Part shown: positions 578 to 43,984 of the stretch, piece after piece | Numbering within the stretch: the stretch's first letter is position 1 | Layout of the letters: every line of letters begins with the position of its first letter | Assembly (NCBI GenBank): GCA_031291955.1 | Contig: JARLIA010000014.1 | Coordinates: 666 to 64,665 of the forward strand | From: Minisyncoccota bacterium | GTDB taxonomy: Bacteria > Patescibacteriota > Minisyncoccia > Moranbacterales > UBA2206 | Direction of reading: 5' to 3' | Length of the DNA: 64,000 nucleotides | Made by a program: the position numbers and the translations under genes | Notes under the pieces: generated by a model | Seen by the model: the letters and a program-made list of their open reading frames with translations, nothing else | Told to the model about the DNA's origin: nothing | The model's database searches: none

Positions 578-584
578 AGACAAT

Positions 585-718
585 TTACAATTATCAATTT
601 TCAATTTTCAATCAATTTTTAAATTTTCAATTTTTAAATTTTCAAACCAGCATTGGAAATTGAAAATTAAATCATTGAAAATTCATTGTAAATTGAAAAT
701 TGTAAATTGAAAATTTTT
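585..718. repeat. AT-rich imperfect inverted-repeat element; left arm carries (AATTTTCAAT)n, right arm carries (ATTGAAAATT)n
   Basis: Tandem ttttcaat units occur on one side and attgaaaat units on the other, centred near position 655. The element sits in the ftsW-murG intergenic region. Confidence 0.6.
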
Positions 719-3016: not shown

Positions 3017-3261
3017 ACGTTTGTTCAGAGTTAAGGATTATTACCCCGCCGAGACGGGATGATTTTTTGCTGAAAAGACGAGAATGCCGGAAGATCGACC
3101 GCTTCTTTGTCTCGCTTTTCTGTCTAACCATATTATGGGTTATAACCCGCCGTTTGTCAAACCAGAAAAAGACCCTTGCCAAAACGCGAAAGAGCGGATA
3201 AAATGGGACGGAACCGAGTTTTTGAAATTTCCTATTTTCTTTCCGATTTATACGTGGAATC

Positions 3262-3288
3262 GGCGTCCCGGACGGCGTTTTTTTATTT
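3262..3288 (+). terminator. Plus-strand intrinsic-terminator-like hairpin plus T7 run, about 45 nt upstream of the PBP start
   Basis: The sequence is cggcgtcc-cg-gacggcg followed by ttttttt. It is not a terminator when read on the minus strand. Confidence 0.35.
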
Positions 3289-3330
3289 TCCAACAAAAGG
3301 AAATAAAAAAAATCCTGCGTTGTTTTATTT

Positions 3331-5634
3331 ATGATAAATAAACCGCAAAGCGCAAACAAAAATATGAACGGTTCAACCTACATCAAGCTTCTACCGACGC
3401 CTATGGAAAAACCAACAACCAAGCGCTCAAAATTCCCAGCCATCCTAAAACCCGTCCTGAAAAATTTTTTTCTCATTATTTTGGACGTGGCAGTAATGAT
3501 CGGCACTTTAAGCTTGATTGCCGGCTACTACGTTTACGCCAACACGCCACTTCCGGCGGGAATGCCCACCGCGAAAATGGACCAAACCACCCTCATTTAC
3601 GACCGAACTGGCCAGTACATCCTTTACAAGATATACGGCGACCAAAACCGCCAAAGTTTGAAGCACAATCAAATTCCTGATGATATCCGCATCGCCACCA
3701 TCGCTTCCGAGGACAGCAATTTCTATTCTCATGGCGGCATTGACGTAAAGTCCATCGCCCGGGCGGCGCTCACCGATTGGCAATCAGGCAGTTTCCAGGA
3801 GGGAGGCTCCACCATCACTCAACAATTGGTCAGAAGCCTCTACCTTTCCCCGGAAAAAACCTTCCGCCGGAAAGCTATCGAAGCCATCCTGGCCATAAAG
3901 TTTGAGAAACAATACAGCAAGGACCAGATTTTGGATATGTATCTCAATGATGTTCCATATGGACACAATGCCTACGGCATCGAAACGGCGGCTGAAACTT
4001 ATTTCGGCATCCACGCCGATAAATTAACGCTGGACGAAGCCGCTTTTTTGGCAGCGCTTCCGAACGCGCCGACTTATTATTCCCCTTATGGCGGCAATAC
4101 GCAGGCGCTTGTTGCCCGTCAGCAGAATATCTTGAATCGGATTGCCGAGTTGAAATTGGCCGACCCACAGATGATCACCGCCGCCAAAAAAGTGGACACG
4201 CTGGCTAAAATAATTCCACTCAAGGATTCGATCCAAGATCCGCATTTCGTCTTTTACGTTAAACAGCAATTGGAACAGATGTACGGAAAAGATAAAGTCA
4301 AGAATGGCGGACTAAAAGTCTACACCTCTTTGGATTATAACTTGCAAAACATCGCGCAAAAGGACGTTACGCAAGGTGCCGCCTATAACAGTAAAGCCTA
4401 TAATGCCAATAACGCGGCGCTCGTAGCTATTGATCCTAAAACTGGACAAATCCTGGCCATGGTTGGTGGTCCAAATTTCTGGAACACGGCATCCGACGGA
4501 CAGGTCAACGCCGCCCTCGCCCTCCGCTCGCCCGGCTCTTCCTTTAAGCCTTTTGTCTATTCGGAAGCTTTTTTGAAAGGCTATCAGCCGGATACGCTCC
4601 TTCTGGACGCCTCGACTAATTTCGGCCCGGACGGTTCCGGCCGAAACTATATTCCCCGAAATTATGATGGTCGGTCGCATGGCGTAGTCACGATGCGCCA
4701 GGCCCTGGGCATGTCACTCAACATTCCAGCCGTCAAAACTCTGTATCTAGCCGGCATTAACGACACGATAAATCTCGCCGAAAAAATGGGCATCACTACC
4801 CTTGATCCGCAAAAGATTCATTACGGCTTAGCATTGGCTATTGGCGGTGGCGATGTGACGCTTCTCGACGAAACTTCCGGCTATTCGGTTTTTGCCAATG
4901 ACGGCCAGCGAAATCCCGCCACGCCCTTCGTGAAAATTGAAGACAGCAGTGGAAAAATCATCTATCAACCGCAGCCGGAAAACGAACAGGTGTTGGATCC
5001 GCAAGTGGCGCGAAAAATCAGTTCCATTTTGTCCGACAACGCCGCCCGAACGCCGATGTTCGGACCAAACAGCAAATTGGTCGTGCCGGGATATGCTGTA
5101 GCTGCCAAAACGGGAACGTCTCAAGACTTTCGGGACGGCTGGACGGTCGGCTACACGCCGGATCTCGCCGTCGGTGTCTGGACCGGGAACAACAACAACT
5201 CGCCATTCCGAAGCGGTGCGGACGGGGTTTTTGTGGCCGCGCCGATCTGGAATAATTTCATGACCGCTGCTCTCAAAGATTATCCCAAAGAAACTTTCCT
5301 GGCTTACAACAATGAAAATTCCACCTCGGCCAACACTCAGAGCGGCAATTTCAAGATTGTTTATTTCGATAAAAAAACCGGCAAAGTTTTATCTGGCAAG
5401 AAATTGAAAAAGGCCGATCCGGCCAATATTGGAACACGTGTTGAATACGCCGGCAGTTCCGGCAATCTTTCTTCCAGCAACGCTACTGCGAGCGCGGGAT
5501 TAGTCGAAACTCAAAATACCACTGACCCGATGATCCAGGGTTGGCAAGCCAGCCTCAATCAAGCAATTGTCAATTCAGGAAATAGCAGTAATAATTCCGG
5601 CAACGGCGGCAACTCCAAACATCATCACCATTGA
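3331..5634 (+). CDS. Class A penicillin-binding protein (bifunctional GT51 transglycosylase plus transpeptidase) with an Asn/Ser-rich C-terminal tail ending in HHHH
   Basis: An N-terminal TM is followed by the GT51 motifs RIATIASEDSNFYSHGG and RKAIEA. The transpeptidase motifs SSFKP (SxxK) and KTGT are also present. Confidence 0.85.
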   Translation: MINKPQSANKNMNGSTYIKLLPTPMEKPTTKRSKFPAILKPVLKNFFLIILDVAVMIGTLSLIAGYYVYANTPLPAGMPTAKMDQTTLIYDRTGQYILYKIYGDQNRQSLKHNQIPDDIRIATIASEDSNFYSHGGIDVKSIARAALTDWQSGSFQEGGSTITQQLVRSLYLSPEKTFRRKAIEAILAIKFEKQYSKDQILDMYLNDVPYGHNAYGIETAAETYFGIHADKLTLDEAAFLAALPNAPTYYSPYGGNTQALVARQQNILNRIAELKLADPQMITAAKKVDTLAKIIPLKDSIQDPHFVFYVKQQLEQMYGKDKVKNGGLKVYTSLDYNLQNIAQKDVTQGAAYNSKAYNANNAALVAIDPKTGQILAMVGGPNFWNTASDGQVNAALALRSPGSSFKPFVYSEAFLKGYQPDTLLLDASTNFGPDGSGRNYIPRNYDGRSHGVVTMRQALGMSLNIPAVKTLYLAGINDTINLAEKMGITTLDPQKIHYGLALAIGGGDVTLLDETSGYSVFANDGQRNPATPFVKIEDSSGKIIYQPQPENEQVLDPQVARKISSILSDNAARTPMFGPNSKLVVPGYAVAAKTGTSQDFRDGWTVGYTPDLAVGVWTGNNNNSPFRSGADGVFVAAPIWNNFMTAALKDYPKETFLAYNNENSTSANTQSGNFKIVYFDKKTGKVLSGKKLKKADPANIGTRVEYAGSSGNLSSSNATASAGLVETQNTTDPMIQGWQASLNQAIVNSGNSSNNSGNGGNSKHHHH

Positions 5635-5678: not shown

Positions 5679-6461
5679 TTATTTTGACGTTTGTGTATAA
5701 TTCTTTCTCAGTTTCAATGTAGCCCAAACCACTCCCCCGATCAACACTAAAATAATAATCCCCGCAATCCATTTCCACCAGCCGGAAGAGTAACCAACTG
5801 GATTAGTGTTGATTTTGGGATTGTTTTGCGAATTAATTTTGGATTGTTTCAGTACAGAAGCGAACTGTCCGTTTCCCCCGCTTTCCGGATTAGCGCCAAC
5901 ACCGGTCGTCTCATTGGAAACCACTGTTTCCCCGACTTTCGGCAAAGTCAGAGAATATATTTTGGTGTGTTCACTCTGGCTGTTGTTGTCATGGGAGTAA
6001 ATACGAAAATAGTATTCAGTTCCGGGCGTGAGATTGCCAAGACGCATGGTGTGGTTGTTGCTTTTGATATGGTCGGTTTTTCTGTCAGCCAGGTTTTGGT
6101 CGGTGCCGTAGCGGATTTCTGCGTCGGAGCTGTTGTTGGTCTGCCAAGTGATGTCGATTTCCGTGGGTGAAACGGCCTGGTATTTGACGGCGGAGATGTT
6201 GAGAGAAATAGTGTCGTTGTCGGAATCGATGGACGAAGAACTGCTGCTCGAACTCTGCGTGGCGGAAGAACCGTTCAATGATTCAACGCTGTAATTTTGG
6301 GATCCGGCCGAAGACGACGAAATGGCGCCGGTGCCTATAGTCCCGGCCTCGATGCTCCAGTTCTGACTGCTCATCGTGTCCGCCCGGCTTATAAGCGGGA
6401 AAAGAAGCAAAGCGCTCGCAAGGAAGAAATAGAGCTTTTTTTTGGCTTTGACATGGCTCAT
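5679..6461 (-). CDS. Secreted/anchored protein with Ser-rich linker, FN3-like beta-sandwich and C-terminal TM anchor
   Basis: It has a signal peptide and a poly-Ser run. The segment TPGTEYYFRIYS is FN3-like, and WWKWIAGIIILVLIGGVVW is a C-terminal TM. Confidence 0.4.
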   Translation of the reverse strand: MSHVKAKKKLYFFLASALLLFPLISRADTMSSQNWSIEAGTIGTGAISSSSAGSQNYSVESLNGSSATQSSSSSSSSIDSDNDTISLNISAVKYQAVSPTEIDITWQTNNSSDAEIRYGTDQNLADRKTDHIKSNNHTMRLGNLTPGTEYYFRIYSHDNNSQSEHTKIYSLTLPKVGETVVSNETTGVGANPESGGNGQFASVLKQSKINSQNNPKINTNPVGYSSGWWKWIAGIIILVLIGGVVWATLKLRKNYTQTSK

Positions 6462-7421
6462 TTATTTATTGCTGTTGTTAGGAGTGGTAGTTTCCGCAGC
6501 CAAGTTACTGCCGACAATGATTAAAACATCGGCGTTGGCCGGCTGGACTTCACCAGCCGGGAGATTTTGAACTTGTCCACCGACCGCTTGAGCAATTCGG
6601 CTCACAAGAGCGGAATCTTTCTGGGTCAGATCAACGACGAGAGTGTTAGTGTAATTGCCTTTGGCGTCGCCCGTGCCAATGACGGCTACGCCGGTGAGAC
6701 TGTTGAGGTTAGCCCGGGTATTACTCGTTCCCGCCACATTAGAGCCTTTTTCAATTATCACCTTTAAAGGGTTTATTGTGGCATTGCTGCTATCGGCAGC
6801 AGGAGTGGAATCGGTTTGTATTTGCATTGGGGATGATGGTGCCGGGTTTGCGGCTGAATTGGCTTGAATCGCCAGATTGCTTCCTGGTGAGTTTTGAGCA
6901 GCAGACTGATCAGCTGAGACAGTTTGACCGCTACTACTATTTTGATCGGCAAAAAGCGGGGCCACGTTCACGATCTTGTTGATGCTTGAACGATAGAGGA
7001 TGGCGACTTTGGCGTTGGCGTAAATCAGGATCTTGTCGCCATTCTCCGCGTTTTTGAAAAAAACCTGATTGCCGAGTTTGCTCTTGTCAGAGACAGTAGC
7101 AAGGGTAGGATTTTCTCCTTGCGGGAGAATCATGAGCTTCCCTACTTGAATCACCACCGACTGGGATTTTGCCTGGGTTAAGGCAACAGAACTGGGAATT
7201 TTTTTAAGAACTTTGTATTGCCGGTAATAATACGCGGCGGTGGCAATGAGACCGAGAAAAACCAGCCAGAATAATATTTTCGAAATTCTCCACCGCGAAA
7301 ATATTCTTGAAATTTTTCTTTTTTCTTTTCTGGTGAAAGCAGGCGCGTAATGCAACGCCTCTGAAGCCTGTCTTGCTTCTCTCGCCATGAAACGCTCAAT
7401 TTTTTCCGGATTTCTTTGCAT
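6462..7421 (-). CDS. Membrane-anchored hypothetical protein (paralog A) with low-complexity C-terminal region
   Basis: A basic N-terminus is followed by one TM. The conserved block GKLMILPQGENPTLATV...FFKNAENGDKILIYANAKVAILYRSSINKI is shared with 7439-7948. Confidence 0.5.
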   Translation of the reverse strand: MQRNPEKIERFMAREARQASEALHYAPAFTRKEKRKISRIFSRWRISKILFWLVFLGLIATAAYYYRQYKVLKKIPSSVALTQAKSQSVVIQVGKLMILPQGENPTLATVSDKSKLGNQVFFKNAENGDKILIYANAKVAILYRSSINKIVNVAPLFADQNSSSGQTVSADQSAAQNSPGSNLAIQANSAANPAPSSPMQIQTDSTPAADSSNATINPLKVIIEKGSNVAGTSNTRANLNSLTGVAVIGTGDAKGNYTNTLVVDLTQKDSALVSRIAQAVGGQVQNLPAGEVQPANADVLIIVGSNLAAETTTPNNSNK

Positions 7422-16222: not shown

Positions 16223-17137
16223 TTAATTCCAATAAACCTGATCAGCAGTGATGATCTGTTTCCATGGACCGCTGGGCACTTGAGAGGCCGGGATGAATTG
16301 CCAGTCAGTCCTGTCCTCGTCCGACAGTCCAAGGTAATCGTGAACAGCTGGCGAAACGTCAAGTCCGGCGTGACTGTTAGTTTTGCTGCTTGGAGTAGCA
16401 CTGCCAAAAACATAACTAGAGTCGTTTTCACCGAACGGCCCAACGTCTTCCCACTGGGCGTAAGCGATCTTGCCGCCTTTGGTGATTTTTATCCACTGGT
16501 TCTTGCAAACACTGTCTTGGGAGCCGTATTTTTCCCCGGCCGCCCAAGGCACCACGGACGCTAAGTTTTTCCTATGATTGCCATTGCCGTCGAAATCATT
16601 GTATGGCAGGGCGAAGTAGAAAGGATTTTCTTTGGGTGTAAATCCGGCCGGCAGATAGCCGTTTCTTTTGCCGGGATTATCCACGCCGCCGAAATGAGCT
16701 TGCCAATCATCATCCCAAGCACTGGAAGTATTGGAAATGTCCTTATTATCCGAATCACCCGGCTCTCCCACCCAGAAGTAGGTAGTTGAAATATTCGCGT
16801 GCAGCGGATATGAATTGGCAACGATGGCCGTTTCGGCTGAAGTTGTCTGATCGTTCTGAGACGCCGCACTGGCACCAGGAGCATTGTTCGTTTCTGCCGT
16901 CCCGTTGCTACTAGCCGGCTGGCTATCAGTTTGGCTCGTGTTCGATTTCTTCTTTTTATTTTTTGCTGCTTGCGGTTTTGTTTTTTGCGCCTCCGCTCTT
17001 TGGACATTCCATTTGCCACTGGCGGCCAAAGTGATCGAAGTCGCCCCGGCCAGCACGATCAGCAGGATCGATGCTTTGTAAATAAATTGTTTTTTGTTTT
17101 TTATTTTTATTTTGTCGATCATTTTTTTGATTGACAT
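16223..17137 (-). CDS. Secreted protein with putative DPBB (RlpA/expansin-like) domain, paralog 1
   Basis: It has a signal/TM, a low-complexity linker and a Trp-rich domain: TTYFWVGE...CKNQWIKITKGGKIAYAQWEDVGPF...AGLDVSPAV.DYLGL. Confidence 0.4.
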   Translation of the reverse strand: MSIKKMIDKIKIKNKKQFIYKASILLIVLAGATSITLAASGKWNVQRAEAQKTKPQAAKNKKKKSNTSQTDSQPASSNGTAETNNAPGASAASQNDQTTSAETAIVANSYPLHANISTTYFWVGEPGDSDNKDISNTSSAWDDDWQAHFGGVDNPGKRNGYLPAGFTPKENPFYFALPYNDFDGNGNHRKNLASVVPWAAGEKYGSQDSVCKNQWIKITKGGKIAYAQWEDVGPFGENDSSYVFGSATPSSKTNSHAGLDVSPAVHDYLGLSDEDRTDWQFIPASQVPSGPWKQIITADQVYWN

Positions 17138-17337
17138 CTGTTTTTTTTATTAATGATTAACCCAATTATATTTTGGTGCCGAATATTTTACTATGGAACG
17201 ATAAATCGGTCAACAATCTTCTGATAAAAAGTTATCCACAGGCGATAGACCCTCCAATAAGCCCTACTTTTTCTTTTTGGCATTTTTGGATATTTTTAGA
17301 TGTAGTAAAATTAAAGAAACAGAAAACATTTTTCAAG

Positions 17338-18060
17338 ATGAAATATCTTAACCACAAAAACTTTTTTTCAGTTGTGATTTTCGTAGCGGTCATGACTGCG
17401 TCCGGTGTTTTGGTTTTTTATTCACAAAAACGCGGCCGGTCTCCTCTCCCGCTTCCGGGGATTGTCGGAATCTACTATCCGGTCCACAAAAACATCACCG
17501 TCACCACTTTCTGGGTCGGCGAAAAGGCCGATCGGTCCAACAAGTATATTGCCAACGACCAAAGCGCCTGGGACAATCATTGGCAAGATCATTATGGCGG
17601 TGCGGACAACCCGAACGACCGGAACGGTTATTTTCCGGCCGGATTTACACCCAAGGAAAATCCCTTCTACTTCGCTCTGCCATACAATGATTTAAACGAC
17701 AACGGAACAAGAAGGAGCGACGCGGCCAGTGTCGTCTATTGGTCAGGAAATCAAAACTGGAGCCCCAACCAATCCATGTGCAAGAATCAATGGATTAAAA
17801 TCACTAAAGGCGGCAAGATAGTTTATGCCCAGTGGGAGGACGTCGGGCCTTTTTCTGAAAATGATGCGGCTTATGTTTTCGGCAACGCGATACCAGAGAG
17901 TAAGACTAATAACCATGCCGGGTTGGATGTTTCCCCGGCCGTCGAATCTTATTTAGGCCTCAAGGGAGAAGATAAGATCGATTGGCAGTTTGTAACAGAT
18001 TCTCAGGTGCCCAGCGGTCCCTGGAAACAGATTGTCACCGCTTCGCAAATAAGTTTTTGA
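17338..18060 (+). CDS. Secreted protein with putative DPBB domain, paralog 2 (divergent from 16223-17137)
   Basis: Its domain is highly similar to that of 16223-17137. The probable start is MKYLNHK; the ORF track extends upstream to 17173. Confidence 0.4.
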   Translation: MKYLNHKNFFSVVIFVAVMTASGVLVFYSQKRGRSPLPLPGIVGIYYPVHKNITVTTFWVGEKADRSNKYIANDQSAWDNHWQDHYGGADNPNDRNGYFPAGFTPKENPFYFALPYNDLNDNGTRRSDAASVVYWSGNQNWSPNQSMCKNQWIKITKGGKIVYAQWEDVGPFSENDAAYVFGNAIPESKTNNHAGLDVSPAVESYLGLKGEDKIDWQFVTDSQVPSGPWKQIVTASQISF

Positions 18061-33058: not shown

Positions 33059-33084
33059 TACGTAATTAATTACGTAATTCCATT
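33059..33084 (-). promoter_or_regulatory. Third copy, GGAATTACGTAATTAATTACGTACCC, with an adjacent TATAAT
   Basis: It is a perfect TTACGTAA-TTAA-TTACGTA palindrome. Confidence 0.35.
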
Positions 33085-33155: not shown

Positions 33156-33246
33156 GGCAAGGCCGTGCAATCCAAATTATTGATTTACAATATTCCCTCA
33201 TGTCAATTAAACTCTACTTACTCGGTCGCATTTTCCAAGGAGACCT

Positions 33247-33429
33247 TTATTTATATTTACGCACCCCTTTGAATTTTTCACCATTGGATTTTTGATCCAT
33301 AAATAAATGAGTGTCTGTATCTATTTTGACCCATCTTTTAATTTTAGGATTAAAAACCTGCTCTCTATTTTTAACTTCCCCTCTTCGCGCGTTATCTCCG
33401 AATGGTTTATTTTTCGCCATATCCATCAC
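33247..33429 (-). CDS. Small basic hypothetical protein (60 aa) overlapping the hsdS 3' end
   Basis: The ORF is present but has no assignable family. Confidence 0.3.
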   Translation of the reverse strand: MMDMAKNKPFGDNARRGEVKNREQVFNPKIKRWVKIDTDTHLFMDQKSNGEKFKGVRKYK

Positions 33430-34831
33430 CCCCTTTCTCTATAAATTCTTCAACCTTTCTTTTTGCTTCCTCTAATAATTCTTTTGATTTTTTCCGCGCT
33501 TCGTATGACTGAATCACAAGTTCAGTGATTTTTTTCTGGATTTCTTTTGGTAGAATTGGAATCAAAACATTTTTGATCTGCTGCGGTTTCCAGTGCGCAA
33601 TAACTGATCCGCCAGCATCACGCTCAGCTTGCATTTGACCAATTTGAGAATTCAAACACAGTGCCAAATATTCTGCCTCAACTTCTTTGCTTTTCAACTT
33701 CAGGCGCAACGTTCCGCCCGACACAATTCCTTGAATATCTTTTTTCAAAACAAAAGCAATTCCCGGGGTTGCATCTTTTGTTAGCAATATTTCACCTTTT
33801 TTTGGTTCAAAATCATCTTTCAATTTTTCATAAAGCTTATCACTTAGATATTTTTGATTGCTTTCCGTGATTCCGAATTTTGTCATGCTACTAACCCGGA
33901 TAAAAATCTTACCTTCTTCTTGATATTCTTCCGCCCCAACTTCAATTCCCTTTTTCATCGAAACTAAATCGCCCAACTTGTGCACATTATGTTTTGCAAC
34001 CCTATCTTCTATTATCTTATATTTCGGCTGAAAATATTCCGCATCGATTCGATGTGCAATTTCGATATCGGAAAGATTTATGATTGATGATAACTTTTCT
34101 ACATTATCAAAACCGTCCAATTCCAATTCTCCCAAAAGTAAGTTTTCGGCTTGTTGATATTGCGTTTTAGCTTTCTCAAATTCATCCAAGCCAGCCAACA
34201 CTATCATTTTTATTTTTTGTTGAGCTTCAAGATTAACTTCGGGAAGAATTATTTTTTCAAGGCTATACAAATTCATGTGTCCTTGAACGCCTCCACTTGA
34301 TCCTCTATCGATCTGAAATTTTCCATATTTTGAATTCAGAAAAGCGGCTAAATATTCTGGCAATAGATTCTCTTTTGGTTTTATCAAAATAATATCCGCG
34401 GAATTTGCAACGGGATGATTCTCTGTAACGACACTAGCATTGCCAATTGACCCACTTCTGGCAAGCAAGACAAACCCCGGATAAACCTGGCTCTTTTTCA
34501 GTTTTTTATGAAATTCTTCGTCAATATAAACAATACCATTTTCAAAATCTGTAACAAATTCATCAACGTTTTGTGTTCTCAAAAGTGGAACTCCATCATC
34601 GCAAAAATGGCTCGCCATAGAAGACACAAAACCAACATCAATCTTTGGCGCCATCTCCTCCAATGTTAGTAACTCAAATTTTTTAAGATTTTTTTCCAAA
34701 TCCAAATATTCCGGCTGATAATATTCAGCATCCATCCGCATCGCGCCTTCGAGTTGAGATTTTTGAATTATGGAAAAATTAGTCATAAAATTTTTGAAAT
34801 ATTCCCCACAAATGAACGTATTAATAGGCAT
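33407..34831 (-). CDS. hsdS: Restriction-modification specificity (S) subunit, HsdS-like with two target-recognition domains
   Basis: The conserved N-terminal block RMDAEYYQPEY and the central repeat RIDAEYFQPKY are present. The true start may be the internal Met (MTNFS...). Confidence 0.8.
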   Translation of the reverse strand: MPINTFICGEYFKNFMTNFSIIQKSQLEGAMRMDAEYYQPEYLDLEKNLKKFELLTLEEMAPKIDVGFVSSMASHFCDDGVPLLRTQNVDEFVTDFENGIVYIDEEFHKKLKKSQVYPGFVLLARSGSIGNASVVTENHPVANSADIILIKPKENLLPEYLAAFLNSKYGKFQIDRGSSGGVQGHMNLYSLEKIILPEVNLEAQQKIKMIVLAGLDEFEKAKTQYQQAENLLLGELELDGFDNVEKLSSIINLSDIEIAHRIDAEYFQPKYKIIEDRVAKHNVHKLGDLVSMKKGIEVGAEEYQEEGKIFIRVSSMTKFGITESNQKYLSDKLYEKLKDDFEPKKGEILLTKDATPGIAFVLKKDIQGIVSGGTLRLKLKSKEVEAEYLALCLNSQIGQMQAERDAGGSVIAHWKPQQIKNVLIPILPKEIQKKITELVIQSYEARKKSKELLEEAKRKVEEFIEKGGDGYGEK

Positions 34832-34950
34832 AATATCAAGCTGTGGATAACTCCTTGCATAATCATACAGCTATGGTATTATGAGCTTGGTACTTGTAAG
34901 GGCTTTGGCCCTCTCACGGTTAAAACGTATAAACCGTAGCAAGTGCCAAA

Positions 34951-35442
34951 TCAATCATCCTCCATATTTCCTGCATGCAGGATTTTTTTATTGTTAAATT
35001 TGTTACCTGAATTTTTTTGATTGTTTTTCCAAAAAGGAATTAGGCTCCAAAAAAATTTATTTCCACCTTCAATTTCTTTAACTATTATTTTTATTCTCGC
35101 ACCATTTATTATAGCAACAAACCCATAATAACTAACTTCAACCATTTTATATTCCCATCTAGAATTAATTTTTTGTTGTTCAAACTTCCTTGTTTCATAA
35201 AATTCTTGTAAGGTATTTGACTTTTCCAATATATGAGGAGCGAGTTTTAACAACTTCAATCTTATATATTGATCACTTTTTATTCGAGCCTTGTTTTTAT
35301 TTTTGAATTTCAAATGTTCCAATCCCTTCGTATTAAAAGAAATCTTTCCACCCAAATAAGGACAATGAATTTGGCCTATTGTTTTGTAATAATTTTCGGC
35401 CTCTTCTTTTACCTTTAAAAATTTTATTTGATCAATCTCCAT
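34951..35442 (-). CDS. Hypothetical 163-aa protein between the RM methyltransferase and the S subunit
   Basis: Its start overlaps the stop of the upstream gene. No motif was recognised. Confidence 0.45.
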   Translation of the reverse strand: MEIDQIKFLKVKEEAENYYKTIGQIHCPYLGGKISFNTKGLEHLKFKNKNKARIKSDQYIRLKLLKLAPHILEKSNTLQEFYETRKFEQQKINSRWEYKMVEVSYYGFVAIINGARIKIIVKEIEGGNKFFWSLIPFWKNNQKNSGNKFNNKKILHAGNMEDD

Positions 35443-37355
35443 TATTTTTTCATAAACTTCAAAAACTCCTCCGCAATTTCGTCTAGATCGTGATCAATAA
35501 TTTTCTTTCCGCCGGCATCATACATAACATTCCCCTCGCTGTCTTTTTTATAGATATAATCCCCTGAATTGTCTTTGCCGCCTTTCTTGGAAACTGCCAT
35601 AAAAATCGGATAATCTTCGGGGATTTTTTCATCCTCATTCCATTTTTGCAAAAACAGAACTGATGTTTTTGTGCCGGTGTGCGGTTTGAAGGTGTTGTCA
35701 TGCAGTCCCACCACTGCCAACAGACGCGCCTTGCTCAAAACAAACCGCCGCACATATTCCATCTGCGTATTGTTCAAAACTCCTTGCGGCAAAACGATTG
35801 CCATCCTTCCGCCGGGCTTGAGAAAATTAAGATCGCGTTCAATGAACAAAACGTCGCGTGAAACTTTGTTTTGATGCTTGGATGTTTTTTCAAAATTTTT
35901 GTCATGTTTAAATCCAAGATCATAACGATTCAAAATCACACCTTTGATCTCTCCAGCAAATGGCGGATTGGTCAGCACGATGTCAAAATTAAAGTCAGTC
36001 ATTTTTTCCTGGTTTCTTCGGTTCTCATCAGAATCCTTGAATGTTCGCAAAAACGGTCGGAATTTCGCATGCGCTTGTTCATTCCAAACTTCACTGTCCA
36101 GCGAGTTAGCATTGGTCACATTTGTTTTACCATCGCCTGCAATGAGCATCATAGCTTTTCCAATTTTCACTGAGCGCGGATCAAAATCAATTCCGTACAA
36201 ATGTTTTTCCGCATAATCTTTTTGCTTTGCTTTGTAATCATCTTCGAAATTTTTCTTGTTTATTTCTTTGTCCCACACATATTGCATAGCATGCAACAAA
36301 AATCCGCAACTGCCCGCAGCAGTATCAATGATGAAATCTTTTGAAGTCGGCGCCAGCATTTTCACCGCCATGTCAATCACATGACGCGGCGTGAAATATT
36401 GGCCTTTTTCGCCTTTAGCATCCAAGTTAATCAGATATTCAAAGGCATCATCGATCACCTGCAGATTAGAACCAAAAAGGCGATATTTTTGCAAAAGAGA
36501 AATTGCCGGCACGATGGCATTTTCCGGAATTTCTATTTCGTCATTCGACTTGAAAACATCACGCCACTGATTTTTGGAATCCTCAAAAAGCCGCTGAATA
36601 TTGTTTAGATTTTCCTTGTTAGAAGCGCCGGCAATCACCCGAAATCTGCGATTTTCATTTCTAGGCGTTTCGATTTCATCATACAGCTTGGCATAAATAA
36701 GTTTGAAAATTTCATCAAACGAATCCACGCCGCTGTTGGCCAAAACAACTTCTTGCAAATCATAAATGAGTTGTTGCAAATTAGGAATTTCATCAAGATC
36801 ACTATATACGATTTTCTTTGAACGTACATCATCAACCGTTTCGTTAAATTTGGGAATTTCCGGCAAGTCCTCAAAAAGATTTGGGTCGGTTCGTAAAATA
36901 TTATTTTGAAGTTTTCCGTCTGTCAAAACGAGAATTGGCGCACCGGTCGCATTGGCGTAGCTTTTCAATTGCCCCAGACCATCTTTCACGTCGGGTTTTT
37001 TCACTTCAACCACAAGATAGGGAGTTTTGCCGTCTTCACGATAAATCACAATGTCCGCACGTTTTTTCCCAATCTCTCGCCCAAATTGCACATCTACTTC
37101 CACATCCATCCGGTCAAGTGGATATTTATAAAAATTTAATAATTTATAAATCATGAGTTGACGAACTATCTCCTCCGGCTTAGCTACTAACTTTTTATTT
37201 CTTTTTAAACATGGCAAATAAAACTTTCCTTCTTTTTCAAAAAGATCCAAGACTTCTTCAATTTTAATTCCCTCAAAAACAGAAAGTCCATATTGCATAT
37301 CCGGATTGCGAAAAATTTTCCCCAAAATTTCACTTGTCTTTTTTTGATCCGCCAT
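35442..37355 (-). CDS. Fused restriction-modification enzyme: N-terminal HsdR-N-like PD-(D/E)xK nuclease domain plus gamma-class N6-adenine DNA methyltransferase (BcgI-A-like / Type IIB-IIG)
   Basis: The N-terminus shows RADIVIY...PYLVVEVKKP...APILVLTDG, matching the HsdR N-terminal fold. The MTase motif DIVLTNPPFAG is present. At 637 aa there is no helicase and no separate hsdR. Confidence 0.7.
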   Translation of the reverse strand: MADQKKTSEILGKIFRNPDMQYGLSVFEGIKIEEVLDLFEKEGKFYLPCLKRNKKLVAKPEEIVRQLMIYKLLNFYKYPLDRMDVEVDVQFGREIGKKRADIVIYREDGKTPYLVVEVKKPDVKDGLGQLKSYANATGAPILVLTDGKLQNNILRTDPNLFEDLPEIPKFNETVDDVRSKKIVYSDLDEIPNLQQLIYDLQEVVLANSGVDSFDEIFKLIYAKLYDEIETPRNENRRFRVIAGASNKENLNNIQRLFEDSKNQWRDVFKSNDEIEIPENAIVPAISLLQKYRLFGSNLQVIDDAFEYLINLDAKGEKGQYFTPRHVIDMAVKMLAPTSKDFIIDTAAGSCGFLLHAMQYVWDKEINKKNFEDDYKAKQKDYAEKHLYGIDFDPRSVKIGKAMMLIAGDGKTNVTNANSLDSEVWNEQAHAKFRPFLRTFKDSDENRRNQEKMTDFNFDIVLTNPPFAGEIKGVILNRYDLGFKHDKNFEKTSKHQNKVSRDVLFIERDLNFLKPGGRMAIVLPQGVLNNTQMEYVRRFVLSKARLLAVVGLHDNTFKPHTGTKTSVLFLQKWNEDEKIPEDYPIFMAVSKKGGKDNSGDYIYKKDSEGNVMYDAGGKKIIDHDLDEIAEEFLKFMKK

Positions 37356-37356
37356 A

Positions 37357-37998
37357 TTATTTGTTTATTTTAGAAAGATTTAGAATTACCTTGCCTTGAA
37401 ATTGAACTTCGCCGGGAATAATTATCATTTTTTCATAAGCCGGATTTTCCGGTTGCAAATATCTTTTTCCGCCATCAGCGACAAAGCGCTTTACAGTCGT
37501 GCCCGCATCCGTTCGCGCAATCACAATATCACCGCTTTTATATTCTTTTGATTCTTTGATAAGCAGACTATCACCATCATCGATTCCGGCATTAATCATA
37601 GAATCTCCAGAAATTTGAATAACAAAAACTCTATCTTTTGATTCATTTATTTTTTCATTTTTTAAAACTTTTTCAGATATTGGGAAAAAGGTGAATGCAT
37701 TAGCAAAAGAATCGAGATATGATCCGCCGGCGCTAACGCCAGCCATTTTAATCAAAGGATCTCTTCCAATTTCCTTATAACCCAAAGGCAAAATTCTTAT
37801 CCCTCTCGCCTGACCATCTTCTCTTTTTATATATTCCTTTCTTTCAAGCGTATCTAAAAAGTTTATAACCGACTGGTTCGAAGATACGCCCAGCTCTTCC
37901 TTAAAATCAGAAATAGACGGCGGAAAGCCGGAACTTTCCAAAAATGTGTAAATAAATTCTAAAACTTTTTTTTGTTTTGGGGTAAGTTTAAAACTCAT
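37357..37998 (-). CDS. lexA: LexA-type repressor (winged-helix plus S24 peptidase)
   Basis: A LexA-like N-terminal HTH is followed by a C-terminal S24 domain with ISGDSM (Ser) and TTVKRF (Lys). Its stop is 1 nt from the RM start codon. Confidence 0.8.
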   Translation of the reverse strand: MSFKLTPKQKKVLEFIYTFLESSGFPPSISDFKEELGVSSNQSVINFLDTLERKEYIKREDGQARGIRILPLGYKEIGRDPLIKMAGVSAGGSYLDSFANAFTFFPISEKVLKNEKINESKDRVFVIQISGDSMINAGIDDGDSLLIKESKEYKSGDIVIARTDAGTTVKRFVADGGKRYLQPENPAYEKMIIIPGEVQFQGKVILNLSKINK

Positions 37999-38073
37999 AT
38001 ACCCATTATATATGACTGTTTGTACACGTCAAGTTCTTTACATAAGGCTATTTATTCAAAACTGTTGATAACT

Positions 38074-38345
38074 TTACTTCTCCTCCCCCATCCCATACTT
38101 AAACTTCATCCCCAGATATGTACCGGCGGCGACACCGGCGGCATAGATGATGATCGCGACAAAGCTCCTTTCTTTGTCTAGCTGATCGATGATATTGTAG
38201 ATGACCAGCATTGTCGTGATCGTCACCAGAAATGACATTGAGACGGCCGGAGCGATTTTGTGTTTGGCGATATACCGCCAGTTGAGCGTCAGCAAAAAAT
38301 CCTGGAATATCCCGACAAAAAAATAGATTATAAGATAGTATGCCA
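38074..38345 (-). CDS. Small 3-TM membrane protein
   Basis: It is hydrophobic, and its ATG lies 2 nt after the upstream small ORF. Confidence 0.4.
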
Positions 38346-38347
38346 TA

Positions 38348-38524
38348 TTATTTTTTCCAATCCTCAATAACCAACTTGCTCCCCGATTTCTTCACCACCA
38401 CCTTCTGCTTCTCCCGCCATTTTAGTTCGCGGACGAGTTCGATCGGAATCGTGACGGCGATGGAACGCTGGCCGACTTTGGTCAGTTTCCGGATGTTTTT
38501 GTCTTCCAATTTTCTTGTGGGCAT
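38348..38524 (-). CDS. AbrB/MazE/SpoVT-type small DNA-binding protein (58 aa)
   Basis: The translation is MPTRKLEDKNIRKLTKVGQRSIAVTIPIELVRELKW..., which has the swapped-hairpin AbrB fold signature. It falls below the ORF-track cutoff. Confidence 0.4.
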   Translation of the reverse strand: MPTRKLEDKNIRKLTKVGQRSIAVTIPIELVRELKWREKQKVVVKKSGSKLVIEDWKK

Positions 38525-38540
38525 TTTTTTGTTTTAAAAA

Positions 38541-38575
38541 TTATGTACGTAATGTATTACGTAATCTATTACTTA
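38541..38575 (-). promoter_or_regulatory. TTACGTAAT-ACA-TTACGTACATAA element upstream of the AbrB-like gene
   Basis: This is the fourth copy of the palindromic octamer pair. Confidence 0.4.
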
Positions 38576-38727
38576 CATCCTCAGTCTACGCCCAAAATGT
38601 CCCCCTGGCAATAAAAAATGGACTGGCAGATGGAGATCGATTTCAAATAATAAACATAAAAAAAGCTACCGGACCCGTCCGGTAGCTGTCAAAATCAAGG
38701 AAAGCGTTCCTGATCAAAACAAAAAAA

Positions 38728-42743: not shown

Positions 42744-42950
42744 AGAAAAACCAGCGAGACAATTCCAAGCATTAGGAATATCGCGCCAGAAAAAAGAAGC
42801 GCGAAGCGTAAAGAACAGACATCGGCTGTCCACCCGACCAGCGGCCCAACAATAGAAAAAATGATTCTAACCGCCAAGTTTTTCACCGAAAGGACTGTCG
42901 CCCGATTTTCCGACGGGATGAGTCCGTTGATGTAGTCCAGCGTTATCGGA
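42744..42950 (-). pseudogene. Orphan 3' fragment resembling the C-terminus of an MFS transporter, with no start codon
   Basis: The frame opens right after a TGA. It encodes ...NGLIPSENRATVLSVKNLAVRIIFSIVGPLVGW...FLMLGIVSLVFL, which is a typical MFS TM12 region. Confidence 0.35.
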
Positions 42951-42954
42951 TTGT

Positions 42955-43182
42955 TTATCCCGCGCGCCGCTCAATCAGGTTAAGCTCCAGCATCTTCTCC
43001 AAATCTCTGGAAATGGTGATTCTGGTAACTTCTCCGATGCTCTTTTGGATATGCTCAAATATCTGCCCAATTGAGGCAGTTTTATTGGTTTCGATAAAGA
43101 CCAAAATAGCGTCTTGCCTTTTGTTCAGTTTATTATTGATTGCCATATTTTTTATACCATTTATATGCTCTAATTGTATCAT
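42955..43182 (-). CDS. Small winged-helix (DeoR-N-type HTH) DNA-binding protein
   Basis: The segment RQDAILVFIETNKTASIGQIFEHI...ITISRDLEKM is present. Confidence 0.5.
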   Translation of the reverse strand: MIQLEHINGIKNMAINNKLNKRQDAILVFIETNKTASIGQIFEHIQKSIGEVTRITISRDLEKMLELNLIERRAG

Positions 43183-43198
43183 TTATGATATGCAAAGT

Positions 43199-43212
43199 CA
43201 ACATAAATGTTG
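43199..43212. promoter_or_regulatory. CAACAT-AA-ATGTTG palindrome overlapping a TTGACT-17-TACAAT promoter for the HTH gene
   Basis: It is a perfect 6-2-6 inverted repeat. Confidence 0.3.
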
Positions 43213-43312
43213 TTTTATATGTAAAAATGGCTGAAATAGGCGCATTTATCCATTTTGTTCCGGGAAAGCGGAAGTATTTGGATTATTTTGATCGCTACCC
43301 CGAGAATGCAAA

Positions 43313-43345
43313 CAAAAATACCCATCAATCGGGTATCTGTATTTT
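43313..43345. terminator. Terminator hairpin
   Basis: The sequence is aaaaataccc-atcaatc-gggtat-ctgtatttttt. Confidence 0.4.
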
Positions 43346-43554
43346 TTGCTTTATATCTAAGATTAATTTTGACTTATTTTCGCTGTAAAAGAAAGAAATT
43401 GATGGCAAGAAGAGCCATCAGACTAATATAGGAAGCCTTCTGAACAAGATTGCCTCTGAATCCCTCATCAATTCCGTTATATGTAATCCAAAGAATAAAA
43501 ATGACGTTTCCCAAGAGTGCTAAAAGGCGAAGTATTTTCAGCATAGTTTATTTT

Positions 43555-43839
43555 TTATAATCCAAAACAAAAATGGCCCAAACAAGCCCAGGGCAAATCT
43601 CCATCCAGATACCATTTGTTTTGATACTTCACGATTTTGATAGTTTCTCCTGTTGCGGTCTTGCAGGTGCCGTAATTTTCAGTTTTTTCAAGAAGTTGGA
43701 CACAGCCTCTGAAAGCATAATAATTTTCAAATGTGCTGTGGGCTTTTTTCAAAGTATACAACTGATAAATTCCGAAAATAGTAACCGATACCATTATCAG
43801 AATTATAAATATTGTAATTTTTTTGTTAATTATAGCCAT
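43555..43839 (-). CDS. Small N-terminally anchored hypothetical protein
   Basis: One TM is followed by a Cys-containing domain. Confidence 0.3.
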   Translation of the reverse strand: MAIINKKITIFIILIMVSVTIFGIYQLYTLKKAHSTFENYYAFRGCVQLLEKTENYGTCKTATGETIKIVKYQNKWYLDGDLPWACLGHFCFGL

Positions 43840-43984
43840 AATAAGTTCTTGATTATTTGTGCCCCAAATATATCACAAACTACCGCTAAACAACAGTGGA
43901 GTAACGACAACCAAAAAATGCAGAAAAACTCACCCTTGAAACGAAACGTTTCCAGGGAGATATTGATTTTAGAGCACACAAAAG

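Follow-up and report, generated by a model that had tools for sequence, protein, structure and literature searches.

Results

A heptamer-built quasi-palindrome between ftsW and murG

The window, by which we mean the whole 64,000-nt stretch of DNA that was analyzed, comes from a Candidatus Moranbacteria host and carries murG, ftsW, serS, gpmI, eno, and mraY, gene names with which Pfam agrees, as well as pgk, which Pfam places between eno and mraY. The features that matter here are as follows.

581 to 646 (minus strand transcribed): left arm of the ftsW-murG element, CAATTTT/ATTTTCA heptamer units (sequence, TRF, autocorrelation, inverted repeat)
647 to 656 (minus strand transcribed): apex of the ftsW-murG hairpin, CCAGCATTGG (fold)
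652 to 716 (minus strand transcribed): right arm of the ftsW-murG element, ATTGAAA/ATTGTAA heptamer units (sequence, TRF, inverted repeat, profile)
44870 to 47355 (minus strand): 16S rRNA gene that hosts the helix-40 copy (Rfam SSU match)
45004 to 45864: group-II-like intron of 861 nt, at E. coli position ~1400 of the same 16S gene
45071 to 45508: LAGLIDADG_1 ORF inside the 861-nt intron
46094 to 46267 (minus strand): helix-40 insertion of 174 nt that replaces the loop (Rfam SSU match, flanks, fold, profile)
51275 to 51335: half element upstream of serS, a one-armed array of three units (sequence, profile)
61107 to 61225: spacer between eno and gpmI with a more degenerate copy (TRF, autocorrelation, profile)
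63567 to 63580: lone ATTGAAAATT unit between mraY and pgk (spacer of 31 nt), no significant family member

The spacer between ftsW and murG (581 to 716) is a quasi-palindrome of ~130 nt with a GC content of 16 to 18%. An inverted-repeat search returned 65-nt arms (576 to 640 and 657 to 721) with a complementarity of 78%, and the imperfect palindrome of the original prediction, with tandem (A)ATTTTCAAT at 581 to 646, ATTGAAAATT at 652 to 716, and CCAGCATTGG at the center, was recovered in all its parts. On the transcribed strand, the right arm is the 5′ arm (TTTTCAA type), which begins ~40 nt past the ftsW stop codon (757 to 759), and the left arm is the 3′ arm, which reads TTGAAAA and ends 4 nt short of the murG ATG (577 to 575). 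The sense strand of the spacer folds with −42.6 kcal/mol (z = −5.2 versus shuffles) and the other strand with −35.6 kcal/mol (z = −5.4), and at the apex a CCA/UGG pairing closes a 4-nt loop. In the closest relative (L167), the contig ends ~70 nt past the ftsW stop codon, where the hairpin is expected to begin.

The arms have a period of 7 nt

TRF assigned a period of 7 to each ftsW-murG arm (9.4 copies, 70 to 73% matches) and to the eno-gpmI spacer (9.7 copies); the ftsW-murG arms are heptanucleotide LSSRs (at least three tandem copies of a 5- to 11-nt unit). The lag-7 autocorrelation in four arms of the window gave z scores of 3.9 to 5.6, with 5.6 for the left and 5.0 for the right arm of the ftsW-murG element; it reached 4.8 in the eno-gpmI spacer and was weak (1.6) in the serS array. 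Seven was also the best lag in 21 of the 30 distinct helix-40 inserts described below, three orthologous ftsW-murG spacers had lag-7 z scores of 5.3 to 6.6, and the period holds with many different heptamer units. The autocorrelation peaks were at lags 7 and 14; lag 10 was negative everywhere, and lag 11 was close to zero.

A ~10-nt periodicity of A/T tracts, from which curved DNA had been predicted, is therefore replaced by a period of 7 nt, and the prediction of curvature fails with it: the A-tracts are not phased at ~10 to 11 bp, and curvature cancels because a 7-nt spacing turns successive tracts to different directions. Intrinsic curvature of the element, or a role in binding a nucleoid protein, is hardly credible. 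The AT-rich sequence with its regular A4/T4 tracts would suit such a role, but the lags just given speak against it, and curvature has no need of palindromic symmetry.

Four family members in the window

The 64 kb contain 14 exact copies of ATTGAAAATT, all within five places (seven copies in the ftsW-murG spacer, four in the 16S gene, and one each upstream of serS, at the eno stop codon, and at the mraY stop codon). With one mismatch allowed, 58 matches were counted versus 26.9 ± 4.4 expected, and 58 was reached in none of 100 shuffles. A profile (A2/R1, here R1) built from eight elements, all from other genomes, matched exactly four sites of the window, with the next match at 9.8 bits; the E-values are rough, as the calibration was shortened. 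The sites are helix 40 of the 16S rRNA (46128 to 46237, 60 bits, E ~1e-17, model positions 2 to 104), the ftsW-murG spacer (588 to 709, 50 bits, E ~1.5e-14, model positions 2 to 104), the eno-gpmI spacer (61127 to 61222, 26 bits, E ~4e-7), and, as a partial match to model positions 11 to 73 only, the region upstream of serS (51267 to 51329, 17 bits, E ~3e-4). R1 found no family match at ~100 other AT-rich islands of the window. Furthermore, pairwise alignment scores between elements were 55 to 73, versus 15 ± 3 for shuffles (11 to 18 standard deviations above); other AT-rich islands did not exceed 20. Enrichment and conservation beyond AT-richness, the lack of which was to count against the original prediction, were thus both found, and the finding survived.

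The clusters near serS and eno-gpmI that had been called related are indeed family members, since a profile from other genomes finds both. The eno-gpmI spacer has AAATTTA/AAATTTC units and a terminal ATTGAAAATT at the eno stop codon, and it folds modestly better than shuffles (z = −2.4 and −3.5); its longest perfect palindrome is 16 nt (61130 to 61145), not 18 nt as had been stated. The half element directly 5′ of the serS start codon has the TTTTCAA orientation on the serS sense strand, is preceded by a terminator-like hairpin at 51346 to 51332, and is identical in two further assemblies of the same strain. A 14-mer said to abut the stop codons of both eno and mraY is present at both places, but the stop codons are placed differently, the eno TAA lying inside it and the mraY TAG overlapping its last base only. 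However, 116 different 14-mers occur more than once at sites far apart in the window, and the mraY-pgk site is not significant with R1 (5.3 bits, E ~1.3).

A copy in helix 40 of the 16S rRNA

The earlier reader overlooked the strongest copy, which is inside the 16S rRNA gene. There, helix 40 has the flanks GAGACTGCC and GGAGGAAGG, and an insertion of 174 nt is found between GAGACUGCC and GGAGGAAGG. The base of the insertion is GC containing, with CAGAAC...GUUCUG, GCAC-UUCG-GUGC, and GCGC...GCGC segments, and the distal hairpin (46120 to 46245) is AT rich and made of TTTTCAA/TTCTCAA and TTAGAAA/TTGAAAA heptamers. The whole insertion folds as one long hairpin (−68.1 kcal/mol, z = −9.4), and Rfam gave no intron match at this site. 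In structure it resembles an intervening sequence (IVS), i.e., a hairpin in place of the loop of an rRNA helix, with neither an ORF nor an intron fold. A four-way junction at its base, with two small UUCG/GNRA hairpins beside the long stem, is visually plausible, but we do not claim it: since the two small hairpins are complementary, one continuous hairpin was the minimum-energy structure of all 30 mini-constructs.

Helix-40 copies are also found in many metagenomic CPR 16S genes. The element in the window is 86 to 92% identical to elements in L080 (where it occupies the atpB-atpE spacer), L023, L068, and L162, whose helix-40 insert stands at 92%; with that L162 insert, the ftsW-murG spacer of the window shares an exact match of 27 nt. 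The type of insert does not track 16S phylogeny: the closest 16S flanks (94 to 96% identity) bear unrelated units, and the TTTTCAA type returns at 79 to 92% identity. Among the helix-40 inserts, the sense strand folds better in 18 of 30 (P = 0.056), a weak bias that may point to a degree of constraint on the RNA within rRNA, although in the insert of the window it is the antisense strand that has the more stable fold.

Distribution and turnover in CPR

In species-representative genomes, full-length R1 matches are almost all from Patescibacteria, where they cover many candidate phyla, and the matches in other phyla are single arms. The TTTTCAA arm comes first in 13 cases versus 1 in CPR and in 7 versus 21 elsewhere; outside CPR, the opposite order (A-rich arm, loop, U-rich arm) often surrounds GC-rich, terminator-like hairpins (e.g., L053 and L113). 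Twenty-five of 36 elements lie between co-directional genes (three are divergent, one is convergent), usually 0 to 20 nt from the stop and start codons, and copies are found inside operons such as atpB-atpE. The intergenic copies are symmetric at the DNA level: 16 of 28 have the more stable fold on the sense strand (P = 0.51), G-U pairs number 61 versus 59, and no strand asymmetry that would signal RNA-level selection was seen in these 28 copies.

The family turns over rapidly. At the ftsW-murG junction, a relative with 92% FtsW identity has the same element with changes at the level of single units, relatives with 77 and 76% have hairpins of other heptamers (TTTGACA and AAATCCA), and one with 75% has a spacer of just 11 nt. 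The junction is empty in L126 and L168, whose FtsW identity of 75 to 76% is too low for a definition of breakpoints. Similarity is collinear and runs through the irregular, nonrepeat parts, e.g., the sub-apical AATGAWTWAA...TTWATCATT and AAACAAT.

Two further ideas were dropped. A unit specific to each genome, such that the heptamer of helix 40 recurs in the genome's own spacers, was seen in the window, L151, and L159 and not in L154, L163, and L142; it was given up as a rule because of this limited support and because several units co-occur in one locus. Carriage by phages was rejected as well: 56 viral contigs have the sub-apical pattern, none with a family member at that site, and the 459 kb of viral DNA with this pattern gave one marginal R1 match.

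Discussion

In sum, our data define a family of AT-rich quasi-palindromes of ~90 to 130 bp that is characteristic of CPR/Patescibacteria and whose arms are degenerate 7-nt arrays around a sub-apical AATGAWTWAA...TTWATCATT, of TTTTCAA type 5′ and of TTGAAAA type 3′, on either strand. On balance, we regard the ftsW-murG element as one copy of a dispersed, CPR-wide, fast-evolving, and probably selfish palindromic repeat that is presumably co-transcribed as a self-contained hairpin. Of the original prediction, the palindrome, its related clusters, and the classes "REP/MITE-like elements" and "mRNA hairpins" stand, the similarity seen with the external profile and in the alignments going well beyond AT-richness; the period, the curvature, and the length of the second palindrome do not.

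In our model, the element acts as repeat DNA that is selfish or close to neutral, and its copies occupy sites at which a self-contained hairpin is harmless, i.e., in short, transcribed, co-directional spacers and at the tips of rRNA helices. At the DNA level, its 7-nt units are probably gained, lost, and replaced by slippage, and copying from arm to arm and from site to site probably preserves the palindrome. The order of the genes and published work suggest that the element is co-transcribed; it would then fold as an AU-rich hairpin of 45 to 70 bp that does not terminate transcription and that is probably a substrate for double-strand-specific processing by RNase III, like the IVSs of rRNA. 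Such processing would take the helix-40 hairpin out of pre-16S rRNA and would cut the ftsW-murG transcript just 5′ of murG. The elements may insert as wholes, but repeats as simple as these leave room for convergent growth in place. Neither a transposase nor another mobilizing gene was found in the 64-kb window, the loci that were retrieved showed no related autonomous transposon with matching ends, and no target-site duplication is recognizable at the boundaries of the element, because these are fuzzy in AT-rich flanks. A Y1_Tnp-like gene near the L124 copy had pointed to a RAYT link; this gene has no homolog in the 64-kb window, and no elements flank it.

Two other explanations of the palindromes have to be weighed seriously. 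The hairpin could be selected as intercistronic "punctuation," in which the RNA structure itself does a job, a reading that we hold to be possible, if on the unlikely side. The job could be that of an RNase III site, of a block to 3′-exonucleases that determines how much ftsW mRNA there is relative to murG mRNA, or of an uncoupler of translation, the last by giving the downstream start codon a leader rich in A and in stops, in a genome where Shine-Dalgarno sequences are rarely used. Elements do span the gaps from stop to start codon of co-directional genes, only 4 nt separate the end of the 3′ arm from the murG ATG, and a Shine-Dalgarno-like motif precedes 4 of the 49 genes of the window only. 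Moreover, TTGAAAA arrays carry TGA in all three frames and, in a cross-phylum sample, lie upstream of ORF starts in forward orientation 35 times versus 17 times in reverse; analogous TAACTGA heptamer arrays have been proposed as translational regulators (PMC4679880). The ftsW-murG junction also keeps its hairpin shape in relatives despite differing units. However, selection on the RNA should be visible as a difference between the strands in stability or G-U pairs that favors the sense strand, and the intergenic copies show no such difference; furthermore, the same junction is empty in L126 and L168, the serS copy is one-armed and reversed, and the same element is present within rRNA, where functions in mRNA are irrelevant. 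Alternatively, the palindromes could be simple-sequence repeats that grew in place by slippage of heptamers and template switching from arm to arm, without any movement, so that their likeness would be convergence. The period of 7 with its many different units would fit this, as would orthologous spacers made of different units and the presence of (AATTGAA)n arrays in many unrelated phyla, including genomes with 60 to 68% GC; PMC4679880 cites Mrazek 2007 for heptanucleotides being the most frequent type of long simple-sequence repeat in prokaryotes. Growth in place is unlikely, however, in view of the collinear similarity beyond the repeats, the 27-nt exact match, identities of 86 to 92% across contexts and candidate phyla, and types of insert that are shared by distant 16S lineages and differ in close relatives.

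Functions in transcription fare worse still. The UP-like promoter module of the original prediction, or a promoter in which TTGAAAA arrays provide −35 boxes and A-tracts for the downstream gene, is quite improbable. A sigma-70-like TTGAAA-18-TAAATT is present at 611 to 582 on the murG strand, on either strand it is always the forward arm that points to the downstream gene, and the L009 array is followed by TATAAT. But the match is 9 of 12 positions, and matches this weak are common in such AT-rich DNA; furthermore, the −10-like hexamer ends 4 nt short of the murG ATG, so that transcription would start within or just after the start codon. Nor does a promoter agree with a full copy inside the 16S gene, with orthologous junctions that differ or, as in L126 and L168, are without the element, with serS and eno copies that face the wrong way, or with A-tracts that, at 7 nt apart, are out of helical phase. 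It may be added that any (TTGAAAA)n array automatically generates TTGAAA-N17-GAAAAT. An intrinsic terminator or attenuator between ftsW and murG, to which the long stable hairpin after a stop codon and the terminator-like hairpins enclosed by arms of opposite order outside CPR (L053 and L113) might point, is very improbable. A scan of 578 to 756 gave no terminator-like site; the stem is AT rich, and what comes after it is A-rich sequence and then the murG ATG, not a U-tract, conventional GC-rich terminators being present elsewhere in the genome. Moreover, one copy interrupts the 16S gene midway, with the 3′ part of the gene (the intron and ~370 nt of rRNA) still to follow, and others lie within operons such as atpB-atpE.

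The selfish-repeat reading has parallels in known systems. IVSs are cut out of rRNA by RNase III without religation, as in the 23S rRNA of Salmonella, Leptospira, and Campylobacter and the 16S rRNA of Caedibacter. Like these, the helix-40 insertion is a hairpin with a long stem and a paired base at the tip of an rRNA helix, in place of the loop, without an ORF or an intron fold, and with a sporadic distribution that does not follow phylogeny. Unlike these, it is in helix 40 of 16S rRNA, its distal stem consists of 7-nt tandem units, its excision is a prediction, and its family is also present in spacers between cistrons, both in its own genome and in others. We know of no description of an IVS family that is shared with intercistronic spacers. 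Many short (<200 bp), uncharacterized insertions that are neither introns nor ORF bearing have been reported for CPR rRNA genes (Tsurumaki 2024, PMC11270868), and these may be IVSs of the RNase III type (PMC11270868).

With the REPs/BIMEs and REPINs of E. coli and Pseudomonas our elements share that they are dispersed extragenic palindromes in co-directional, apparently co-transcribed spacers, with the potential for RNA hairpins. REPs, however, have a length of ~20 to 40 nt, are GC rich with a conserved GTAG-type head, and are linked to RAYT transposases, whereas the elements here are 90 to 130 nt long, 80 to 90% AT, and heptamer periodic, without a GTAG-like head and without a RAYT in the 64-kb window; to our knowledge, REPs are absent from rRNA genes, whereas our family has a 16S copy. 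The RPEs of Rickettsia and the Correia elements of Neisseria (MITEs) are likewise palindromes of 100 to 150 bp that are tolerated in genes or transcripts through self-folding. RPEs insert in frame into protein genes. Correia elements, whose co-transcribed copies are RNase III substrates, have an IHF site, a TA duplication, and defined terminal inverted repeats. We recognize no such features here, and neither family is heptamer periodic; the terminal inverted repeats of a MITE are present in the ftsW-murG element trivially, because the whole element is an inverted repeat.

The 7-nt unit has its own precedents. TAACTGA arrays are known from Beggiatoaceae, Cyanobacteria, and Bacteroidetes (MacGregor 2015, PMC4679880), and like them and the cyanobacterial STRR sequences, our elements are intergenic, consist of 7-nt tandem units, and have a patchy phylogenetic distribution. 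As with TAACTGA arrays, they often lie directly 5′ of start codons, with stops in all frames and in a genome with little Shine-Dalgarno use. TAACTGA arrays and STRRs are direct arrays of one unit, whereas two inverted arrays, a conserved apical module, and rRNA copies are found here. Small AT- or GC-rich hairpins have also invaded intergenic regions of reduced organelle genomes, as in sponge mitochondria (PMC2800124); with an organelle as host and unrelated sequences, this is an analogy only. Text and keyword searches of a collection of papers gave no match for (ATTGAAA)n strings and no description of palindromic or AT-rich hairpin repeats in CPR.

CPR/Patescibacteria are noted for an unusually large number of rRNA insertions, of which introns and homing endonucleases have been studied. 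The helix-40 hairpin class of short rRNA insertions belongs to the same sequence family as intercistronic palindromes across many CPR phyla, which turns an unexplained feature of rRNA into a tractable, genome-wide question of how a repeat spreads, why it keeps a 7-nt period, and whether it is removed by RNase III. The R1 profile can be used to annotate the elements, which also break metagenome assemblies, as at the contig end in L167. A bolder version of the model, which we consider doubtful, is that one double-strand-specific activity cuts a mobile heptamer hairpin from both pre-16S rRNA and polycistronic mRNAs as a punctuation signal common to CPR, the family spreading as selfish DNA and its period being set by a protein that reads or lays heptamers. 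If this were true, helix 40 and other rRNA helix tips would be processed, and the cutting of mRNA would free downstream messages with very short, A-rich leaders devoid of Shine-Dalgarno sequences. The elements also offer a natural test of how polycistronic transcripts are organized in very small, Shine-Dalgarno-poor genomes.

Heptamer-repeat hairpins in the window

All genes around the finding lie on the minus strand (gene assignments from Pfam, element units from the sequence):

1-577, minus, murG, N-terminal part
581-646, CAATTTT-type units of the ftsW-murG element
between the two unit arrays, CCAGCATTGG, centre of the palindrome
652-716, ATTGAAA-type units of the ftsW-murG element
757-1875, minus, ftsW
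46094-46267, minus, 174-nt insert in the 16S rRNA gene, replacing the helix-40 loop
49946-51274, minus, serS
59550-61106, minus, gpmI
61226-62485, minus, eno
62505-63548, minus, pgk
from 63580 onward, minus, mraY

The 179-nt ftsW-murG spacer contains a quasi-palindrome. As the original prediction had it, this is an imperfect palindrome, centred on CCAGCATTGG, with 65-nt arms that are 78% complementary in an inverted-repeat search, and folding of the transcribed copy, as had been proposed, gave −42.6 kcal/mol (z −5.2), with −35.6 kcal/mol (z −5.4) for the other strand. The exact unit ATTGAAAATT is present in 14 copies in 64 kb, all within five places (seven in the ftsW-murG spacer, four in 46130-46236, and single copies at 51287, 61218, and 63567). 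With one mismatch allowed, 58 matches were found versus 26.9 ± 4.4 expected, and the suggested motif is thus enriched in the window.

The repeat has a period of 7 nt and a super-period of 14/15 nt, instead of the ~10 nt first read from the A/T tracts. Tandem Repeats Finder gave a period of 7 with 9.4 copies per ftsW-murG arm, and lag-7 autocorrelation was high in the ftsW-murG arms (z 5.6 and 5.0), the 16S copy (3.9 and 4.4), and the eno-gpmI spacer (4.8); at lag 10, it was negative in all regions tested. A-tracts spaced by 7 bp are out of helical phase, and therefore, the prediction of curved DNA has no basis. The palindrome in the eno-gpmI spacer, described as perfect over 18 nt, is in fact 16 nt long (61130-61145). 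The 14-mer ATTGAAAATTATCC, said to abut the stop codons of both eno and mraY, does occur at both sites, but the stop codons are placed differently relative to it; as many as 116 different 14-mers are shared between distant sites of the window.

To define the family, a profile was made from eight elements, all taken from other genomes (Patescibacteria spacers, one Bacteroidota spacer, and two metagenomic helix-40 inserts), and searched against the window with filters off.

Matches of the family profile in the window; the E values are rough (shortened calibration), yet members and background lie far apart
46128-46237, 16S helix 40, 60 bits, E = 1e-17
588-709, ftsW-murG, 50 bits, E = 1.5e-14
61127-61222, eno-gpmI, 26 bits, E = 4e-7
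51267-51329, serS upstream, single arm, 17 bits, E = 3e-4
49640-49706, next best match, 9.8 bits, E = 0.05
63504-63577, mraY-pgk, 5.3 bits, E = 1.3

The window thus holds four family members, one of them within the 16S rRNA gene, and the clusters upstream of serS (one arm) and between eno and gpmI are relatives of the ftsW-murG element, as proposed. By its FtsW homologues, the window belongs to Candidatus Moranbacteria (CPR/Patescibacteria). Two assemblies of the same strain, GCA_031291895.1 and a Logan assembly, have an identical upstream region of serS. Conservation between copies goes beyond AT-richness: global alignments of copy against copy scored 55 to 73, whereas shuffles scored 15 ± 3 and no other AT-rich island exceeded 20 (about 100 further islands with a GC content of ≤ ~25% are present in the window). 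The copies are collinear even in their irregular parts, among them the sub-apical module AATGAWTWAA ... TTWATCATT and the motif AAACAAT. Furthermore, the ftsW-murG spacer shares a 27-nt exact match with a helix-40 insert from another locus (L162), and the helix-40 element of the window is 86 to 92% identical to elements in L162 and in spacers at L080 (atpB-atpE), L023 (Zambryskiibacteria), and L068 (Saccharibacteria). In a negative control of 459 kb of viral contigs chosen for the sub-apical pattern, one marginal partial match was found, located elsewhere. These data show that the AT-rich palindromic elements form a genuine family, with strong statistical support and a period of 7 nt.

A copy inside the 16S rRNA gene

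The cluster at 46120-46245, overlooked in the original prediction, sits within a minus-strand gene for bacterial 16S rRNA (Rfam), between GAGACUGCC and GGAGGAAGGCGGGGAUGACGUC, which border helix 40 (about 1161-1175 in E. coli); on the 3′ side of the insert, the alignment to the 16S model starts at position 1158. The insert is a single long hairpin (sense, −68.1 kcal/mol, z −9.4; antisense, −76.1 kcal/mol) whose base contains G and C and whose distal 125 nt consist of TTTTCAA/TTCTCAA and TTAGAAA/TTGAAAA heptamers.

The same gene (44870-47355, minus) carries an 861-nt group-II-like intron (45004-45864) at E. coli position about 1400, which matches the known CPR "16IS9" type. Its ORF (45071-45508) encodes a LAGLIDADG_1 endonuclease, and its match to group-II D1-D4 is sub-threshold (33.8 bits; cutoff, 35). 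The insertion is masked in the Rfam match (45813-47355, given as model positions 1-1533): the 5′ exon extends to ...TGTACTCAC at 45865, and the 3′ exon runs from CGCCCGTCACACC at 45003 to ...GGATCACCTCCTTT near 44870. Therefore, the true 16S 3′ end lies near 44870, with the anti-Shine-Dalgarno sequence intact. No 23S rRNA gene follows in 42950-44870; the 2 kb downstream of the 16S gene has 35 to 37% GC, with ORFs 43573-44145 and 44045-44557 lacking a Pfam match.

Helix 40 of other CPR bacteria was surveyed by scanning metagenomes for 16S genes with 121 to 181 additional bases between its flanks. Of the 40 loci obtained, 39 had such inserts, with 29 distinct sequences besides that of the window (30 in total). 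Every insert forms a long hairpin; the base is paired and contains GC, and the distal stem consists of short tandem repeats whose unit varies (e.g., TTTTCAA, TAAAGTT, AAATTTG, AACAAAG, CCATAAC, GAATTCT, or GCAGACT); the best arm period was 7 in 21, 8 in 4, and 10 to 11 in 5 of the 30. The type of insert is discordant with 16S phylogeny: the four flanks closest to the window (94 to 96% identity) enclose unrelated units, and the TTTTCAA type of the window reappears at flank identities of 92, 88, 84, and 79%. Family-type elements also occupy other 16S positions (L163, 12003-12105, and, weaker, L150, 5674-5811). At L159, such a hairpin (6215-6274) in a CPR 16S gene abuts a group I intron (6275-6528).

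[quoted passage not shown] A repeat structure or relatives in intergenic DNA are not described in this literature (PMC11270868, PMC9297842).

Distribution and turnover

Two phased ATTGAAAATT units were found at 120 or more loci in species-representative genomes. The matches listed come from Bacteroidota, Acidobacteriota (60 to 68% GC), Planctomycetota, Cyanobacteria, many Patescibacteria, and others; among them, non-CPR loci are mostly single (AATTGAA)n arrays adjoining start or stop codons, and hairpins outside the CPR have the arm order reversed relative to the window (TTTTCAA arm first versus opposite: CPR, 13 versus 1; elsewhere, 7 versus 21). Full-length profile matches are nearly restricted to Patescibacteria (Microgenomates, Parcubacteria, and Saccharibacteria lineages), with multiple copies at some loci (e.g., L159 and L150). 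Co-directional gene pairs flank 25 of 36 elements, typically 0 to 20 nt from the upstream stop and the downstream start, with three in divergent and one in convergent context; "in transcribed spacers" was therefore a fair description. The distribution of the family is CPR-wide and its context intercistronic.

Genomes of 60 to 68% GC (the GC-rich Thermoanaerobaculia L113 [495-580 and 1928-2010], L053, L106, and L011, as well as L054, L062, and L110) have pure (AATTGAA)4 ... (TTCAATT)4 hairpins with a GC-rich loop, directly after stop codons and sometimes flanking one gene. Base composition cannot account for an AT-only heptamer repeat in such genomes. In an uncultured bacterium (L109, about 3200-3500), ATTGAGAATTGAAAATTAAAAATTAGAAATTGAAAATT heptamer arrays form the spacers between consecutive tRNA genes, a further processed-transcript context.

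Orthologous ftsW-murG junctions
L123, FtsW 92% identity: same element, some units altered in both arms, stem more perfect
L124, FtsW 77% identity: TGTCAAA/TTTGACA-unit hairpin
L125, FtsW 76% identity: AAATCCA/AATGTCA-type-unit hairpin
L126, FtsW 75% identity: spacer of 11 nt
L168, FtsW 76% identity: no element; downstream gene differs

Periodicity at lag 7 is present in each of the three occupied orthologues (z 5.3 to 6.6). Hairpin and 7-nt period persist at this junction while the unit sequence changes, and the element is dispensable; turnover is rapid.

The contig of L167 ends about 70 nt past the ftsW stop, and those of L001 and L002 end in or at the 16S gene. Public contigs of close relatives stop at hairpin sites, found or expected, or at insertion-bearing 16S genes; the elements probably disrupt short-read assemblies and are under-represented in MAGs.

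Other features of the window

A low-GC island (33200-38600; 35 to 40% versus about 46%) encodes a type I restriction-modification specificity subunit (33407-34831), an LPD3-domain ORF (34951-35442), an N6-methylase/HsdR_N fusion (35442-37355), and a LexA-like repressor (37357-37998). TACGTAAT...ATTACGTA palindromes on both sides (32963; 33059-33076, 18 nt and perfect; 38546-38575) could be operators or island boundaries. The divergent ORFs 16223-17137 (minus) and 17173-18060 (plus), both without Pfam matches, share an inverted stretch of ~46 nt (16593-16638 versus 17635-17680) and look like diverged inverted paralogues.

Possible roles and origin

If pairing were maintained at the RNA level, the transcribed strand should fold better and contain more G-U pairs. 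Among 28 intergenic elements, the sense strand folded better in 16 and the antisense strand in 12 (Wilcoxon p 0.51), with 61 versus 59 G-U pairs; helix-40 inserts had a weak sense-strand bias (18 of 30, p 0.056), the insert of the window favouring antisense. The symmetry of the elements therefore looks as if it arises at the DNA level. A terminator was considered and rejected: a scan of the ftsW-murG spacer gave no terminator-like site, and transcription of the 16S gene has to pass through the copy it contains. GC-rich terminators of the conventional kind are present at other places in the window (e.g., 51446-51427). The case for a promoter is weak; the scan gave one 9/12 match (TTGAAA-18-TAAATT, 611-582) whose −10 ends 4 nt ahead of the murG ATG, and (TTGAAAA)n arrays yield TTGAAA-N17-GAAAAT by construction.

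The main rival to selfish DNA, and one compatible with it, is a selected intercistronic processing or translation-context signal. TGA occurs in every reading frame of the forward units, and arrays ahead of ORF starts are about twice as often forward as reverse (35 versus 17 among the matches listed in a cross-phylum sample), similar to the TAACTGA heptamer arrays that precede start codons in Beggiatoaceae, Cyanobacteria, and Bacteroidetes (PMC4679880). A Shine-Dalgarno-like motif at −18 to −6 is present in only 4 of 49 window genes, although the 16S 3′ end retains CCUCCUUU, and most gene starts follow A-rich sequence such as AAATAAATG.

Of the kinds of element already known, rRNA intervening sequences, REP/REPIN, RPE/Correia MITEs, and heptanucleotide simple-sequence repeats come closest. 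Of the REP/MITE-like reading first put forward, the REP part fails on size, GC content, and head motif, and the MITE label is not yet applicable because a target-site duplication, an empty site, and an autonomous partner were not found; no duplication was recognizable, and no mobilizing genes were seen in the window. A Moranbacteria relative (L124, 13762-14421) has a gene for a 220-aa Y1_Tnp protein (IS200-like/RAYT-like) between murC and murB, at a distance of 2.5 kb from the ftsW-murG hairpin of that relative. The protein may be a mobilizing enzyme; the gene has no homologue in the window and is not flanked by elements.

In sum, we propose that the elements are selfish or near-neutral DNA, which may be tolerated as the transcript would fold into a self-contained hairpin, probably processed by RNase III by analogy with rRNA intervening sequences. 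They would change through heptamer slippage and palindrome-preserving copying and may be replaced or spread between sites and lineages.
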